This document shows, one piece after another, positions 27,564-34,113 of a stretch of 34,113 bases of DNA. The first letter of the stretch is position 1. Each line of letters opens with the position of its first letter. The stretch covers positions 1 through 34,113 of IMG/VR virus record IMGVR_UViG_2695420576_000005; one strand, written 5' to 3'. The translations under genes were made by a program, and so were the position numbers. The DNA is from a virus (lineage: Duplodnaviria; Heunggongvirae; Uroviricota; Caudoviricetes). The notes beneath the pieces are model-generated. The model ran no database searches and had not been told where the DNA came from. It saw only the letters and a program-made list of their open reading frames with translations.

Positions 27564-28684
27564 ATGAAAAAATTAACAGTGGCAATTTCTGCTGTAGCTG
27601 CATCAGTACTGATGGCGATGTCTGCTCAGGCAGCTGAAATTTATAATAAAGACAGTAACAAGCTGGATCTATACGGGAAAGTTAATGCCAAGCACTACTT
27701 TTCCTCTAATGATGCAGATGATGGTGATACTACTTATGCCCGTCTTGGCTTCAAAGGTGAAACCCAAATCAACGATCAACTGACTGGTTTCGGTCAGTGG
27801 GAATATGAATTCAAAGGCAACCGTGCTGAATCTCAAGGTTCTTCCAAAGACAAAACCCGTCTTGCATTTGCAGGCCTGAAATTTGGTGATTACGGCTCAA
27901 TCGATTACGGCCGTAACTACGGTGTAGCATACGACATCGGTGCGTGGACTGACGTCCTGCCAGAATTCGGTGGTGATACCTGGACCCAAACAGATGTGTT
28001 CATGACTGGTCGCACTACTGGTGTTGCAACTTATCGTAACAACGACTTCTTTGGTCTGGTCGATGGCCTGAACTTTGCTGCTCAGTATCAGGGTAAAAAT
28101 GACCGCACTGACGTAACTGAAGCCAACGGTGATGGTTTCGGTTTCTCCACTACTTATGAGTATGAAGGATTCGGCGTGGGTGCAACCTATGCTAAATCAG
28201 ATCGCACTGACGGTCAGGTCGCCTATGGTAAGAGCAAATTCAATGCCTCCGGCAAAAATGCGGAAGTATGGGCTGCAGGCCTGAAATATGATGCGAACAA
28301 TATCTATCTGGCTACCACATATTCTGAAACTCAGAATATGACCGTTTTTGGTAATAACCATATTGCAAACAAAGCACAAAACTTTGAAGCAGTAGCACAA
28401 TATCAGTTTGACTTCGGTCTGCGACCATCTGTTGCTTACCTTCAGTCAAAAGGTAAAGACCTTGGTGTTCATGGTGACCGAGACTTAGTCAAGTATGTCG
28501 AGTCTTAGTCAAGTATGTCGATGTAGTCAAGTATGTCGATGTCGGTGCTACTTACTACTTTAATAAAAACATGTCCACTTTTGTTGATTACAAAATCAAC
28601 TTAATTGACGATAGTAAGTTTACCAAAACAGCTGGTATTGATACCGACGACATCGTCGCTGTAGGTCTGGTTTATCAGTTCTAA
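27564..28684 (+). pseudogene. nmpC: prophage-encoded OmpC/NmpC-family general porin, reading frame broken 60 codons from the 3' end
   Basis: ORF 27564..28508 (314 aa with signal peptide [23 protein letters not shown], then [16 protein letters not shown]...). Downstream in another frame is an intact porin C-terminus ...[54 protein letters not shown] (stop 28682-28684). Confidence 0.85.
28485..28539 (+). repeat. imperfect tandem triplication of a 16-20 nt unit (ttagtcaagtatgtcga) causing a 38-nt insertion in the porin gene
   Basis: Copies at 28485-28501, 28505-28521 and 28524-28539, separated by gtc and tg. Deleting 28486-28523 restores a continuous porin frame. Confidence 0.8.
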
Positions 28685-30291: not shown

Positions 30292-30746
30292 TACGCCTCC
30301 TGCTTGTCGCGCAGCAGCTGGAACTCGCAGCGCTGCGGAATAGTCAGGTGGCAGCCAATATTCATCGCCCAGGCTTCAACCTTACACAGGAAGACATACA
30401 TCTCTCCGGTATCAAGATCGGAGGTATGGCGTAACGACTGGATAGTAGTGATTTCGCCGGTTACGACATCAACCAGGTCCTTGGTTTCATAACCGAGGTA
30501 TGTGTGTTTGAGAGCATCTTTTACCCATGCTGCGGTAGCGAACGATTTCCCCCTGCTGATGAGGTATTCACTGATTTCGCTGTACCACATATGGCTGAGT
30601 GCATTCTGGGAAAGACTGCGTTTCTCACGCCACGGTTTAAGCACCATGCGAAAGCATTTTCCGTCCTCCAGATAAGGCTGGATCTGCTGGCCGAAAGCGG
30701 TGAAGTTGCCGCGATGCAATTTGATGCCATCTTGTGGGAGGTTCAC
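30291..30746 (-). CDS. ninB: NinB/YbcN-family recombination protein
   Basis: 151-aa ORF (GTG start) [62 protein letters not shown]..., NinB/Orf family as in DLP12 ybcN. Confidence 0.85.
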
Positions 30747-30844
30747 GATTCACCTCCGCAGAGGCCAAACGCTGGATGCAAAAAATCGCAGGTGCATTTC
30801 TGCATCTGTGAATGGAGAAGATAGGTTGGATTGTATGTGCGCAT
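30743..30844 (-). CDS. ylcH: YlcH-like small ORF (33 aa)
   Basis: Unlisted [36 protein letters not shown]; its stop overlaps the ninB GTG start (GTGA). Weak support: size and position only. Confidence 0.3.
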
Positions 30845-31229
30845 AAACGTCCCCGTTTAGCGCAGAAGTCACAGGAGTTGTTCAGGCTCCGGTGATACAA
30901 TTATGGCGAATTGATTATTCATAATCAAACAAGATAAGGTCTCAAACTTCATGCAAGCCAAGATTTATTTCTGACAGAATTATACAAAGAAGCTATTGGT
31001 CAGAATCTACTCGGACTGTAAAACATACGCATAACCTTAAGCTCTCACTTTAAGCATTGTTGAAATAATAGCCGTCAAGTACAACCTTAACCACGACTGG
31101 GATATTTCCCTAGCTACCACGAGTTGTACTGCTATTAAACTGCCGTTAAATTCAGTAAGAGAATTTCATCCGATAAGTCAAGGCATGTAAAACATAAAAA
31201 TTAACAAGATATTATCATCTGCAACACTA

Positions 31230-32237
31230 TTGTATGGTATGTCAATGGCCATGTCGGTCGGGAGTTGTGCAACACCTGTCCAGACTAATTTTCCTGGTTA
31301 CACCCCGGGTGCAGATATCATTAGTGTTTCACCCACCAGAAACCAGGTCGATCTCATTGGTGATGTTGTTTATTCCCAGATAAAAGGAACTCGTTCTGTC
31401 AGACAGCTTCACATGTCAGTTCTTGTCCCGCGAACAAATGATTTAAAACCAGCCATTATTTATTATCCCGGCGGCGGATTCATGTCTTCTGAACATGACA
31501 AATTTATTGAAATGAGAATGGCTCTGGCTGAAGCTGGTTTTGTTGTGGCCGCTGTAGAATACAGAACAATTCCTGATACATTTCCAGCACCAGTTGAGGA
31601 TGGGAAAGCTGCAATACGTTACTTGAGAGAACATGCCAGCGATTATGGGATTGATCCTCAAAGAATCGGAGTTCTGGGTGACTCTGCCGGTGGATGGCTT
31701 GCCCAGATGATGGGAACTACAAATGGTGACAAAACCTTTAATAAAGGTGACTTTCTTCAGCAATCAGCAGATGTTCAGGCAGTTGCCACACTTTATGGGA
31801 TTTCTGACTTGTTGAATATTGGCGAGGGGTTCCCTGAATCAGTGCAGGAGGTTCATCGATCTCCTGCCGTAACCGAAGCCTTAATGATCAATGGCCCTGC
31901 ATTCAGAAGTTTTGCGGGAGCCCCCATAACAGCGTCAAAAGAAAAAGCGCTAAACGCCAGTCCAATCGGACATATGAAAGGAGTAAAACCCCCATTTCTT
32001 ATTATGCATGGTAGCAAAGACACTCTGGTTTCACCTGAGCAAAGCGCCAAACTATTCAGGATGTTGAAGAAGAACGGCGATAACGCTGAGTACGTTCTGG
32101 TAGAAGGGGCTGAGCATGGCGATAATACATGGTATCAGCCAATTATTATAAACAGAGTTGTTGAGTGGTTTACTAAAAACCTGGGAACCCCCATAAAAAC
32201 CGCTACCCAACAACAAAAAACAAACGCTGACCTGTAA
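31230..32237 (+). CDS. alpha/beta-hydrolase-fold esterase/lipase (HSL-type, GDSAGG nucleophile elbow); N-terminus/start unresolved
   Basis: Track ORF 31230..32237 (TTG start, 335 aa) with YYPGGGF oxyanion-hole-like motif and GDSAGG serine motif. The frame is open back to TAA at 31188-31190 and encodes a lipoprotein-like signal (KILSSATLLYGMSMAMSVGSC) without a clean ATG. Confidence 0.7.
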   Translation: MYGMSMAMSVGSCATPVQTNFPGYTPGADIISVSPTRNQVDLIGDVVYSQIKGTRSVRQLHMSVLVPRTNDLKPAIIYYPGGGFMSSEHDKFIEMRMALAEAGFVVAAVEYRTIPDTFPAPVEDGKAAIRYLREHASDYGIDPQRIGVLGDSAGGWLAQMMGTTNGDKTFNKGDFLQQSADVQAVATLYGISDLLNIGEGFPESVQEVHRSPAVTEALMINGPAFRSFAGAPITASKEKALNASPIGHMKGVKPPFLIMHGSKDTLVSPEQSAKLFRMLKKNGDNAEYVLVEGAEHGDNTWYQPIIINRVVEWFTKNLGTPIKTATQQQKTNADL

Positions 32238-32242
32238 AAAGC

Positions 32243-32262
32243 AGCCCGCACTTATGCGGGCT
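32243..32262. terminator. bidirectional terminator hairpin between convergent esterase and recombinase genes
   Basis: Stem agcccgca/tgcgggct with ctta loop (32243-32262), flanked by an A run upstream and a T-containing tract downstream. Confidence 0.5.
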
Positions 32263-32586
32263 AACCTATTTCACTCGATTCAAAAGAAATTATTTTTAAT
32301 GGGGGCGTGACCAGCCTCTCGGTGCTCAGATACTTAATGAAGTGGAGTGGCATTCAGGCAAGAGGTTAACATCACCTGTTCGCCATAACCAAGCACGTGC
32401 ACAAAGTTTGTTATCAGTGAATTGTTTTGTGATTGGGTATTGTTGAGCTACTAGAGCAAGAATGCCAACATCCAGTGGCAGTGCCTATAGTAAAACTATA
32501 GCTCAGGGCGCTTCGTTCAAGATAGTTAATATCATATTAGTCACTTTACTTTCATACCATAGCACGGTTGAAAAAGTGATTATTAC

Positions 32587-34113
32587 TCAAAAATAAATCT
32601 CACCATCAACCATATATTTAAGAGTACTTATCGCCTGCTGGGCGGATATTACTTTCATTAAAGGATAGTGTTTAAAAACAATGCCATTCATAAAATAGAT
32701 ATCACAGGTTTTATTATCTGTATTAATTATAATTTTTTCGAATATTTTATAGGCAAGTGTACGACATAGCTCTCGCCCATTTTTACTGGTTAAATCAATA
32801 GCATGAAAATCACCAAGTGAACTCACCCCTTTACTCTTCAAAGTTTTTAATGATACCGAAGCCCTTCGTAATTCCTTATCTAATAGTCTTATTTTCTCTG
32901 CTATAGCGGTAACTTCAGGCGCGACAGACAATGCAACGATTAAATTATTAATTTTCATCTGAAGCTCAATAATTTTTAACTCTAAAGTTTCATTAGCATC
33001 TTTCTTGTTTTCAACTGGTTGAATTTTGCTACAATTAAAAAGCAATTCATTAATGATATTATAATCAACCAAATCTCTTTTTATTGATGGTCTGTCACAT
33101 CGATGTAATCTTCTCATCGGACAAACATAATAGCCATGCAAACTTCCAGATACCGCATGAACAATCATGGTATTACCACAAGCCTCACACTTCATAACTG
33201 TTCGAAGTAGATTTATTAGCATAGGATTCTTGCTACTATTGCTAATACCAAAAGGTGCCAACCGAATTTCCTGTACAGCGTAAAACAAATCATCTGATAT
33301 GACTCTGGGATAATAGCCAGCGATTTCACTTATCCCTTTCCCTCTTGCACGATATGAAGGTACGCATATACCTATCAGAGCTTTATTCGCTAATAATTTT
33401 TCAATTACAGAAGGTCCCCATGCACTTTCTTTTCCTGAGAAATTCTTTACAGCATGATCATTTAAATACTTGGCTATTGCATTCAATGAGCGCCTTTCCA
33501 TCCTGAGTTTAAAAATTAGCTCAATAGTTTTCACCCTGTCGGGGTCTGGAACAAAAGCCGTTCTTTTGTCATCCAATGAGAGCCATCTCGGACAAGAAGC
33601 CGTCATAATCGTGCCTGACTCCAGTGCATCCTGCCGTTTTTTCTTCCATGATAATTTAACCCGACTTGACTTTATCTCGCTTTCTTCATTTGCCCTTTGT
33701 GCTATAAGTATGGCTTTTATTAATGAATATGGCTCATTCAATGAGTCAATATTATAGACTGTATTATCGCAAAGAGTTATAACATCAATACCGTGATTCA
33801 AAATCAATTTCAGACGCTCAATCGCTTCACCGACTTTTTCTCTTGAAAGTCTGTCCAGACTTTCAACTAACAATGTAGTCCCTGGCAATATATAACCATG
33901 TTCTATAGCATCTAAAAATTCCGAAAAAGCTCCTGATTGTGCATGCTTTCCATTGAATGCGCTTAACCCCAAATCTTCATACGTTACGGTATCAAGGTAA
34001 TAATCACTATTTACCTTTAGCCATTCAGTAATAAGCCTTCTCTGGCGGTTTAATGAATCACCAGACATCTGACCTGGTGATGAAAATCGCATATATGCTA
34101 TGGCTTTTTTCAT
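32587..34113 (-). CDS. ybcK: large serine recombinase (resolvase/invertase N-terminal catalytic domain, recombinase domain, zinc ribbon), YbcK-like
   Basis: 508-aa ORF whose ATG is the last three bases of the window. N-terminus MKKAIAYMRFSSPGQMSGDSLNRQRR is a serine-recombinase catalytic motif; Cys cluster CEACGNTM...CPMRRLHRC. Matches DLP12 YbcK by recall. Confidence 0.85.
   Translation of the reverse strand: MKKAIAYMRFSSPGQMSGDSLNRQRRLITEWLKVNSDYYLDTVTYEDLGLSAFNGKHAQSGAFSEFLDAIEHGYILPGTTLLVESLDRLSREKVGEAIERLKLILNHGIDVITLCDNTVYNIDSLNEPYSLIKAILIAQRANEESEIKSSRVKLSWKKKRQDALESGTIMTASCPRWLSLDDKRTAFVPDPDRVKTIELIFKLRMERRSLNAIAKYLNDHAVKNFSGKESAWGPSVIEKLLANKALIGICVPSYRARGKGISEIAGYYPRVISDDLFYAVQEIRLAPFGISNSSKNPMLINLLRTVMKCEACGNTMIVHAVSGSLHGYYVCPMRRLHRCDRPSIKRDLVDYNIINELLFNCSKIQPVENKKDANETLELKIIELQMKINNLIVALSVAPEVTAIAEKIRLLDKELRRASVSLKTLKSKGVSSLGDFHAIDLTSKNGRELCRTLAYKIFEKIIINTDNKTCDIYFMNGIVFKHYPLMKVISAQQAISTLKYMVDGEIYF

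Follow-up and report, generated by a model that had tools for sequence, protein, structure and literature searches.

The window, by which we mean the whole 34,113-nucleotide stretch of a Caudoviricetes virus record that was analyzed, carries a phage moron for a predicted lipoprotein esterase that has very probably been inactivated by a change of its start codon from ATG to ATA, and not by the ATG-TAA that lies immediately upstream. The ORF list of the window contained the gene as a 335-amino-acid reading frame with a TTG start (31230 to 32237, plus strand). The stretch free of in-frame stop codons begins at 31191 and extends to 32237, and the residues encoded from 31191 onwards read N-I-K-I-N-K-I-L-S-S-A-T-L-L-Y-G-M-S-M-A-M-S-V-G-S-C. 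The full reading frame, encoding a BD-FAE-type alpha/beta hydrolase, was assigned to positions 31194 to 32237 of the plus strand (347 codons plus stop). Thirteen stop-free codons have a chance of about 0.5, by our own estimate and not by computation, and the stretch alone is therefore uninformative. We regard it as real coding sequence because 677 complete Escherichia coli genomes and several phages carry a start inside it, and because homologues have signal peptides there. Both 31185 and 31230 are divisible by 3, which places the ATG at 31185 in frame with the TTG at 31230; other in-frame ATGs are found 3' of this TTG at 31239, 31245, and 31251. Further downstream, the frame encodes LGDSAGGW, with its serine codon at 31683 to 31685. 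The open frame upstream of the TTG start, the ATG-TAA at 31185 to 31190, the GDSAGG motif, and the ATG at 31239, all of which had been pointed out in the initial annotation, were thus confirmed in the sequence.

The mutated start codon occupies positions 31194 to 31196 of the plus strand, with a G>A change at 31196 relative to the ATG that represents both the ancestral and the population-wide state. In a six-way alignment, ATA was present only in the window and in UPEC132, whereas Eco889, LF82, MS1737, and A1.S1.65 had ATG. When 5,426 complete E. coli genomes were searched with 55-mers centered on the single nucleotide polymorphism, the ATA allele was recovered from 4 and the intact-ATG allele, by exact match, from 677 further genomes; 681 to 682 complete genomes (approximately 12.6%) possess the esterase gene, including those 4. 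The start used in intact alleles was deduced from annotation and homology. PGAP placed it at the equivalent of 31194 in all four sampled annotations (Eco889, LF82, MS1737, and phage 4A7), resulting in a product of 347 amino acids, MKINKILSS...VGSC. The same ATG is present in the more distant L008 lineage (74% identity), where no ATG precedes it. Since the window allele deviates here from the consensus start of the population, and the N terminus would not be preserved by any other canonical start, the change qualifies as a start loss. The start region is damaged in the window, as had been suspected, and the fallback suggestion of a noncanonical start matches its present ATA state.

The genome of UPEC132 is identical to the window over positions 30900 to 32400 and shares 99.8 to 99.9% identity with it across the full length, with indels, which rules out that the window is the UPEC132 genome itself. 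In UPEC132, PGAP called a shorter coding sequence of 330 amino acids (WP_001251751.1, equivalent to 31245 to 32237 on the plus strand) that lacks the signal peptide. This exact short protein, used as a proxy for the ATA allele, was found on 184 contigs from several sources. Together with the fact that the four complete ATA assemblies are independent and come from different hosts, this leaves a virtually negligible probability that the ATA arose from faulty sequencing or assembly.

The initial annotation had proposed that the gene began at ATG-31185, that the TAA in codon 2 was the disabling lesion, and that the signal was lost in this way. The ATG-TAA (31185 to 31190, plus strand), although in frame with the gene, is the normal state in E. 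coli and not the lesion of the window: it is identical across the six aligned copies, and the 55-mer for the ATG allele contains both ATG-TAA and the intact ATG 9 nucleotides downstream, so that the 677 records share this arrangement, with the four sampled annotations starting at the latter codon. Inducible Bievrevirus phages 4A7 and 4C10 are arranged likewise. The L008 lineage does without any upstream ATG, and dN/dS values of about 0.12 among intact alleles reveal purifying selection, which would be unexpected had the TAA killed the gene. What speaks for the proposal is that two relatives have a sense codon directly after the homologous ATG, with the frame staying open, the sequence being ATG-CAA (ATG CAA AAC ATG) in Escherichia sp. 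MOD1-EC7003 and ATG-AAT (ATG AAT AAA ATG) in the metagenome-assembled locus L011. A sense-to-stop change is therefore a plausible history, and it probably took place earlier, as judged from these two loci; ATG-31194 would still have worked afterwards. As the cause of inactivation, the ATG-TAA is largely refuted already, and we consider it highly improbable.

The sequence upstream of the gene offers little to distinguish the candidate starts. A weak Shine-Dalgarno-like motif, AAGG, is located at 31180 to 31183 on the plus strand, 10 nucleotides 5' of 31194 and merely 1 nucleotide 5' of ATG-31185, a spacing that also argues against the latter as a start. The duplex energy of AAGG with the anti-Shine-Dalgarno sequence was -3.2 kcal/mol, which is not clearly above background. 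Across the candidate starts, energies ranged from -3.2 to +2.2 kcal/mol, with the background averaging -2.5 kcal/mol; because they are weak everywhere, they do not discriminate between these starts. For the internal starts TTG-31230, ATG-31239, and ATG-31245, the Shine-Dalgarno interaction was never better than background. A consensus scan yielded no plus-strand promoter match 5' of the esterase, its 4 matches in total comparing with 4.2 expected from shuffled sequences, and an Rfam scan of positions 30300 to 32900 at E values of up to 1 returned no RNA families.

In its ancestral form, the start region encodes a putative signal peptide with a lipobox, (M>I)KINKILSSATLLYGMSMAMSVGS-C25, at 31194 to 31268 of the plus strand, with the cysteine codon at 31266 to 31268 and alanine as residue +2. 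The lipobox was judged by our own PROSITE PS51257-type rule and not by a trained predictor. This rule requires K or R in the n-region, an uncharged h-region, and a lipobox of the type [LVI..][ASTG..][GAS]-C with the cysteine at positions 15 to 35. The ancestral 347-amino-acid form passes it with K2, K5, and VGS-C25, its h-region being only moderately hydrophobic. Forms initiated at TTG-31230, ATG-31239, or ATG-31245 all fail, and a protein begun at a downstream start would be devoid of the n-region and retain little of the h-region. N-terminal signal peptides were found in most of the 120 listed homologues, and the closest ones have lipoboxes; for some database homologues, such as the entries of 317 to 318 amino acids, the called protein includes no signal peptide. 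The lipoprotein-type signal that had been suspected upstream of the TTG start is thus borne out by the rule, with only the full-length variant passing, and by the homologues, which carry signal peptides instead of starting at the methionine of 31239 without one. A Cys25Tyr variant, present in the cluster representative P0001, was found in no complete E. coli genome by an SNP-centered 55-mer and is therefore rare.

We infer from these features that the normal product is an exported, lipid-anchored esterase. The intact precursor of 347 amino acids, MKINKILSSATLLYGMSMAMSVGS|C, would be exported by Sec, and Cys25 would be lipidated through Lgt, LspA, and Lnt. As residue +2 is alanine, the lipoprotein is probably directed to the outer membrane.

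In E. coli reporters, AUA supports initiation at 1 to 2%, or over a wider range of approximately 0.02 to 3%, of the level of AUG (bioRxiv 10.1101/063800). An rpoS ATG>ATA isolate is reported to show reduced RpoS (PMC12864459), and natural start codon polymorphisms that tune expression are reported for rpoS and the lac operon. In the window, the true start at 31194 to 31196 has mutated from ATG to ATA, and ATG-31185 is no substitute because every E. coli copy has TAA right behind it; the precursor is therefore expected to be initiated at about 0.02 to 3% of the normal rate. Initiation at TTG-31230 or at ATG-31239, -31245, or -31251 would result in an unlipidated cytoplasmic protein without the n-region and with a truncated h-region. 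Low AUA initiation combined with downstream starts that lack a usable signal makes it most likely, from the sequence, that the ATA allele is null or a strong hypomorph. The earlier suggestion that the product may lack its signal peptide or may be missing altogether is supported to the extent that a signal-less product, or hardly any product, is probable, with the ATA start as the cause.

The AUA initiation rates and the tuning polymorphisms of rpoS and the lac operon would also be compatible with ATA being kept as a genuine weak start, that is, as a selected hypomorph with a low but useful level of lipoprotein. Signs of selection are missing, with ATA occurring in 4 of the 681 complete gene-carrying genomes, and the ATA allele also carries a substitution that hits a conserved residue. 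The nearest intact counterpart is the MS1737 allele, from which the window is set apart by two positions in 1,501 bp, corresponding to M1I and L33F. The latter, the sole further difference, derives from C>T at 31290 (plus strand) and falls into an LPGY motif, the leucine of which is shared by at least 90% of the aligned homologues. We therefore consider a selected weak start very unlikely.

A relocated instead of an inactivated enzyme would result if the short form worked, with ATG-31245, ATG-31239, or TTG-31230 giving rise to an active cytoplasmic esterase. The catalytic domain is unchanged save for L33F, the structured fold begins only at about residue 30 to 40, PGAP accepted the 330-amino-acid coding sequence, the short-protein allele is present on 184 contigs, and the homologues of 317 to 318 amino acids are likewise called without a signal. 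Against this stand the absence of any internal start with a Shine-Dalgarno interaction better than background, a family that is overwhelmingly exported, and L33F itself. Moreover, dN/dS among intact alleles was 0.11 to 0.13, which indicates that the intact esterase is under purifying selection, and the branch of the window has 0 synonymous and 2 nonsynonymous changes, a pattern that, at n = 2, resembles relaxed constraint and not a new constraint. A functional short form is hence unlikely. Persistence on 184 contigs fits neutrality and is still compatible with residual function. In terms of the preferred start loss, the ATA allele would be a first step of pseudogenization, inherited within one small lineage.

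The protein affected is an alpha/beta hydrolase of the BD-FAE/carbohydrate-esterase-like branch with an intact Ser164-Asp276-His308 triad. Its best Pfam match was PF20434 (BD-FAE) with 151.4 bits against a gathering cutoff of 26.8, residues 81 to 291 covering profile positions 7 to 214 of 215. Abhydrolase_3 came second with 81.5 bits, also above its cutoff, whereas the NCBIfam HSL models GTSAG, GESAG, and GCSAG reached 54.9, 47.6, and 32.2 bits, below their cutoffs of 380 to 430. The HGG(G) oxyanion motif of the HSL family is absent and is replaced by Y-Y-P-G-G-G-F (Y90-P92-G93-G94-G95), with P92 invariant in the family alignment. The original designation as HSL-type thus fits only loosely, through the Abhydrolase_3 match and the GDSAG motif, since BD-FAE scores far higher and the oxyanion motif is PGGG. 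Two alignments, one with 30 and one with 44 sequences, showed G162-D163-S164-A165-G166, D276, and H308 to be invariant, and all are intact in the window, where the catalytic codons are located at 31683 to 31685 (Ser164), 32019 to 32021 (Asp276), and 32115 to 32117 (His308). An AlphaFold2 model showed an alpha/beta-hydrolase fold (pLDDT, 80; pTM, 0.81) with pLDDT below 50 over residues 1 to 28 and a structured fold from about residue 30 to 40. The best Foldseek match, which was also the best PDB match, was 6nkf (E = 2.5e-24; TM score, 0.68 to 0.78), followed by carbohydrate esterases. Among proteins of solved structure, its nearest relatives comprise an esterase from the rumen and carbohydrate esterases from the gut (6nkf, 6xyc, 6tkx, and 6mly), with identities of only 24 to 34%.

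The esterase ORF is a moron of a DLP12/Bievrevirus-type lambdoid prophage. By blastn, positions 34113 to 32578 of the window align to K-12 ybcK and positions 30929 to 29800 to K-12 ylcH/ybcN. The cargo segment between them (30930 to 32577, delimited from the K-12 alignment and annotation) thus replaces K-12 positions 570438 to 572282, which hold ybcL and ybcM. This agrees with the earlier proposal of a serine esterase as cargo in an exchangeable DLP12-type slot at the position of ybcL-ybcM. The slot holds alternative cargo, with ybcL-ybcM in 3,258 genomes and the esterase in 682; the LF82 and O25b:H4-ST131 genomes were among the matches for the latter. Inducible phages such as 4A7 share the layout. 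The G+C content is 37 to 44% in the cargo segment compared to about 50% in the rusA-ylcH flank, and the gene lies on the strand opposite to its neighbors. The esterase cassette (30952 to 32304, plus strand) comprises a 5' noncoding region, the coding sequence, and a hairpin, and is 93.9% identical by blastn to its counterpart in Escherichia sp. MOD1-EC7003, which lies in a degraded prophage and directly abuts emrE. The GC-rich, terminator-like hairpin (32242 to 32263), 5 nucleotides past the stop codon, has 9 pairs, 6 of them G-C; the minus strand has the better T-run, with the tail CTTTTTAC.

The gene neighborhood of relatives was informative with regard to the substrate. A phenolic-acid decarboxylase gene is located directly 5' of the esterase in loci L008 to L011 and in Selenomonas, and a remnant of it in Erwinia. 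This linkage is absent from the loci of Pectobacterium (L015) and Enterobacter soli (L014), where ABC transporters, a resolvase, an EAL protein, and a TonB receptor are functionally uninformative neighbors. A decarboxylase remnant 5' of the window's esterase was sought by blastn and tblastx and rejected: homology to L008 to L011 begins only at about 31185, from which it follows that the cassette captured the esterase alone. Decarboxylase genes beside the closest relatives, combined with the family match, suggest a hydroxycinnamoyl or acetyl esterase, the likeliest substrates being plant-derived hydroxycinnamoyl (feruloyl) or acetyl esters. Signal peptide-bearing homologues occur across Dickeya at 62 to 69% identity, and that of D. 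aquatica (P0080, 65%) has "Ferulate esterase" as its database label. No mention of this esterase turned up in the literature searched, which was queried by WP_, UniProt, and UniParc accessions and for Bievrevirus and prophage feruloyl esterase.

The window allele represents an ordinary early-stage gene inactivation that leaves existing concepts unchallenged, and the main value of the finding lies in annotation hygiene and a modest lead. In genomes with the ATA allele, PGAP starts an unflagged 330-amino-acid "alpha/beta hydrolase" at an internal ATG, so that databases give no hint of the lineage-specific loss of the exported form. The intact gene is common: inducible phages have it, as do about 12.6% of the complete genomes of E. 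coli. Were it a true feruloyl or acetyl esterase on the cell envelope, it would constitute a phage-borne metabolic trait, unusual beside the serum resistance and adhesin cargo carried by this prophage. It is conceivable, though rather improbable, that the intact esterase is a lysogenic conversion factor that frees hydroxycinnamic acids or acetyl groups from dietary fiber or host glycans and that its silencing in one lineage is adaptive and not neutral decay. If so, gut and extraintestinal E. coli with a Bievrevirus/DLP12-type prophage would have a surface-exposed or periplasmic lipoprotein of this kind.

Several known systems can be compared with the gene. BD-FAE is a family of bifunctional feruloyl/acetyl-xylan esterases, with a founding member described in PMC8165983. 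The window protein resembles the BD-FAE family (PF20434) in its best Pfam match, alpha/beta fold, GDSAG elbow, and Ser-Asp-His triad, but it is carried by a coliphage and not by a Bacteroidota polysaccharide utilization locus, has a predicted lipid anchor, and its activity is a prediction. With HSL family IV (Abhydrolase_3) it shares the GDSAG motif, and many HSL-family structures were among the Foldseek matches; it differs in having PGGG for HGGG, a much higher BD-FAE score, and NCBIfam HSL scores below cutoff. The Dickeya feruloyl esterase FaeD leaves the cell through the Out type II system (PMC9007343; bioRxiv 10.1101/568105). A possible likeness to FaeD is suggested by the label and the Dickeya homologues at 62 to 69% identity. 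Unlike the window protein, these homologues carry Sec signals of the ordinary type, without a lipobox, and E. coli lacks the Out-dependent plant pathogen setting.

As cargo, the gene is similar to the lambdoid morons ybcL-ybcM, bor/iss, lom, and nmpC of DLP12, with the exact slot of ybcL-ybcM, opposite orientation, a hairpin after the gene, and a lower G+C content. Like bor and lom, it encodes a (predicted) envelope protein; unlike morons for serum resistance or adhesion, it encodes an enzyme. The lesion is the same transition as the rpoS ATG>ATA change of an O104:H4 isolate, with reduced protein expected in both cases (PMC12864459). In contrast to rpoS, the next usable starts of the window's gene would also drop the export signal, so that localization as well as amount would be affected.

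The initial annotation described a cargo gene with a lipoprotein signal and a damaged start, and its account of the region matched the sequence as read. A mechanical search returned an open reading frame at 31230-32237 (plus strand, TTG start, 335 aa). This frame contained no stop back to 31191 and was immediately preceded by ATG (31185-31187) and TAA (31188-31190); translation of 31191-31268 gave N-I-K-I-N-K-I-L-S-S-A-T-L-L-Y-G-M-S-M-A-M-S-V-G-S-C. The 13-codon open stretch is not significant alone, its chance being estimated at about one in two. The comparative data show that the stretch is genuinely coding. The cargo gene, the lipoprotein signal, and the damage to the start were all borne out, but the lesion had been mislocated: the window-specific change is not ATG-TAA but ATG to ATA at 31194-31196.

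The start region was aligned for the window and five other Escherichia coli copies (UPEC132, Eco889, LF82, MS1737, and A1.S1.65). ATG-TAA at 31185-31190 was common to all six, and codon 31194-31196 was ATA in the window and UPEC132 and ATG in the other four. The automated PGAP annotation starts the 347-aa protein at the equivalent of ATG-31194 in Eco889, LF82, MS1737, and phage 4A7, and moves the start to ATG-31245 in UPEC132, giving a 330-aa protein. That UPEC132 gene (window 31245-32237, L001 6346-7338) is recorded as WP_001251751.1, "alpha/beta hydrolase," with no pseudogene mark. Because PGAP re-called an internal ATG without such a mark, loss of the signal peptide is invisible in RefSeq.

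Alleles were counted with 55-mers centered on the polymorphism, a design in which the 28-base megablast word cannot seed across a mismatch. The ATA 55-mer matched four genomes (UPEC132, YP3, GN02350, and N50) and the ATG 55-mer 677; in 677 of 678 matching records, the latter aligned exactly at its best place, TAA included. Over 1,501 bp, the window differed from the MS1737 allele only at 31196 (G>A, Met1Ile) and 31290 (C>T, Leu33Phe), and the nearest non-identical genomes carried two mismatches each, judging from bit scores; linkage of the two changes would fit this pattern. With the exact 330-aa protein as a proxy, the ATA allele was represented by 184 contigs versus at least 1,000 for each of the two common full-length alleles; it is therefore real, heritable, and restricted to a minor lineage.

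ATG-TAA is not itself disabling, since nearly all copies have both the TAA and a functional start. The suggestion that a sense codon after the upstream ATG had become a stop fared better as history, because two relatives retain sense codons there. The start region reads ATG CAA AAC ATG AAA in Escherichia sp. MOD1-EC7003 (96% protein identity) and ATG AAT AAA ATG AAA in a metagenome-assembled relative (L011, 80% identity), so that in both the frame begins three codons earlier, at the upstream ATG; the L008 lineage (74%) has the downstream ATG only. The presence of the 31194-equivalent ATG in all three indicates that it is the start common to all lineages. The upstream ATG is optional and was closed on the E. 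coli branch, probably by CAA>TAA. Neither of the two starts that would preserve the signal is now usable in the window, one being lost population-wide and the other privately. AAGG (31180-31183) lies 10 nt before 31194 and 1 nt before 31185, a spacing that favors a start at 31194; anti-Shine-Dalgarno energies of the candidate starts were all weak and did not discriminate between them.

The lipobox was called with a custom PROSITE-type lipoprotein rule. The full-length E. coli protein satisfied it at Cys25, and none of the forms starting at 31230, 31239, or 31245 did. A lipobox occurs mainly in the closest clade (VGSC in E. coli, STGC in homologue P0005, SAGC in P0002), and the rule also flagged two Kluyvera-type sequences at Cys16. 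In some homologue variants Tyr replaces the lipobox Cys, among them P0001, which represents the E. coli protein's 90% cluster, and the 75%-identical P0004. Cys25Tyr would be a second, independent route to lost lipidation; the Tyr allele was absent from the complete E. coli genomes searched.

Initiation at AUA relative to AUG was 1 to 2% in one reporter system and 0.02 to 3% in others (bioRxiv 10.1101/063800), and a natural rpoS ATG>ATA isolate is reported to have reduced RpoS (PMC12864459). Given these precedents, the ATA allele would yield exported precursor at trace levels at best. Initiation at the internal starts would give cytoplasmic products missing the charged n-region and most of the h-region. 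dN/dS among intact alleles was 0.11 to 0.13, indicative of purifying selection. The window branch carried two nonsynonymous changes, one of them at a position conserved in at least 90% of homologues, and no synonymous change, which fits relaxed constraint, two changes being too few for a test. The A1.S1.65 copy is frameshifted and carries a pseudogene annotation (L005 1795-2837), and a truncated 251-aa form (P0124) occurred in 36 contigs. Loss of the cargo gene has recurred in E. coli even though selection on it is purifying overall. A corrected esterase start, and a lesion hidden by current annotation, are useful by-products.

The window is 99.8 to 99.9% identical to a prophage of UPEC132 that adjoins sitABCD and carries DLP12-type early and late genes (emrE, ybcK, ybcN, ninE, ybcO, rusA, ylcG, quuD, an ompC/nmpC-like porin, essD, rrrD, rzpD, and iss/bor) and a full lambda-like head and tail gene set. 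By homology (window 1-29300 to L007 2538-31800), the window starts at sitD of this iron/manganese transporter and continues as a complete-looking lambda-like prophage, whose other envelope cargo comprises an Ail/Lom protein, iss/bor, and the porin, intact here and IS5-interrupted in K-12. Several tail-fiber fragments are marked incomplete in the UPEC132 annotation. The megablast alignment broke at window 28504-28524 (L007 30998-31017, about 20 bp of subject-side overlap), and the first 28.5 kb held 11 gap openings. Either the window derives from a close relative of UPEC132 rather than from UPEC132 itself, or one assembly contains small indel errors.

Against K-12 DLP12, window 34113-32578 aligned with ybcK (97%) and 30929-29800 with ylcH, ybcN, ninE, and part of ybcO (95%); the intervening 30930-32577 (1,648 bp) replaces 1,845 bp with ybcL and ybcM, so the proposed DLP12 slot was correctly identified. 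Among 5,426 complete E. coli genomes, 3,258 carried the ybcL-ybcM version and 682 the esterase version. The esterase lies on the strand opposite to the flanking phage genes; its GC content is 44%, and that of the rusA-ylcH flank is about 50%. The isolated phages Lambda_4C10, 4A7, D2, 1W, 3W, Perceval, and PhiR47_2 share this layout and have the 347-aa gene at full length; two of them, bv_4C10 and 4A7, are described as inducible prophages of the Bievrevirus group (bioRxiv 10.64898/2026.05.26.727859). A smaller unit, window 30952-32304, had a 93.9% match in MOD1-EC7003 (L012 3759-5438), where the cassette joins emrE directly and ybcK and ylcJ are missing. Its neighbors there, a class-III aminotransferase and a pectinesterase-like protein, look non-phage; the locus looks like a heavily degraded prophage that retained its cargo. 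After the esterase stop, a GC-rich terminator-like hairpin (32242-32263) has its good T-run CTTTTTAC on the minus strand and so may stop transcripts arriving from ybcK (phage early-right direction) no less well than it stops that of the esterase. One possibility is a bidirectional terminator insulating the cargo from phage transcription. The approximately 270 bp between the esterase cassette and the ybcK stop (32305-32577) had no counterpart in K-12 DLP12 or the MOD1-EC7003 locus, no Rfam match, and only a mechanical 44-aa ORF (32462-32596).

The two closest non-E. coli lineages carry the esterase directly downstream of a phenolic-acid decarboxylase gene. Close and distant relatives beside this decarboxylase (PF05870) lie at L008 5478-7047, L011 1315-2889, L016 3259-4918, and L013 5103-5575; examples of the pairing include a Selenomonas MAG and Erwinia tracheiphila, the latter with a remnant whose decarboxylase appears broken. 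The Pectobacterium and Enterobacter soli loci showed no such pairing. L008 has a LysR regulator near the esterase; two COesterase-family genes are also nearby. Of the arguments for a hydroxycinnamoyl-ester substrate, the decarboxylase linkage is the strongest, albeit an indirect one. As a lead, the product of this common coliphage moron may be a feruloyl or acetyl esterase anchored in the envelope.

At E <= 1e-10, 2,311 database homologues were found. The nearest named ones belong to Dickeya, Pectobacterium, Pantoea, Kluyvera, Klebsiella, Kosakonia, and Rhizobium, at 62 to 72% identity, and nearly all of those among the matches listed have ordinary Sec signal peptides. One from Dickeya aquatica bears its source's label "Ferulate esterase"; a secreted feruloyl esterase, FaeD, is known from Dickeya (PMC9007343; bioRxiv 10.1101/568105). 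The best Pfam match was BD-FAE (PF20434, 151 bits), followed by Abhydrolase_3 (81 bits), and scores for NCBIfam HSL subfamily models were far under their cutoffs. The AF2 model (pLDDT 80, residues 1 to 28 disordered) best matched goat-rumen esterase 6nkf, followed by gut carbohydrate and acetyl-xylan esterases 6xyc, 6tkx, 6mly, and 6a6o. The protein contains LGDSAGGW (Ser codon 31683-31685), and G162-D163-S164-x-G166, D276, and H308 did not vary across two homologue alignments, of 30 and 44 sequences. Where HSL enzymes have the HGGG motif, this protein has PGGG. A literature search found nothing on the protein itself. What the window carries is a start-codon-loss allele, a known kind of feature, of a prophage esterase that is annotated but apparently unstudied.
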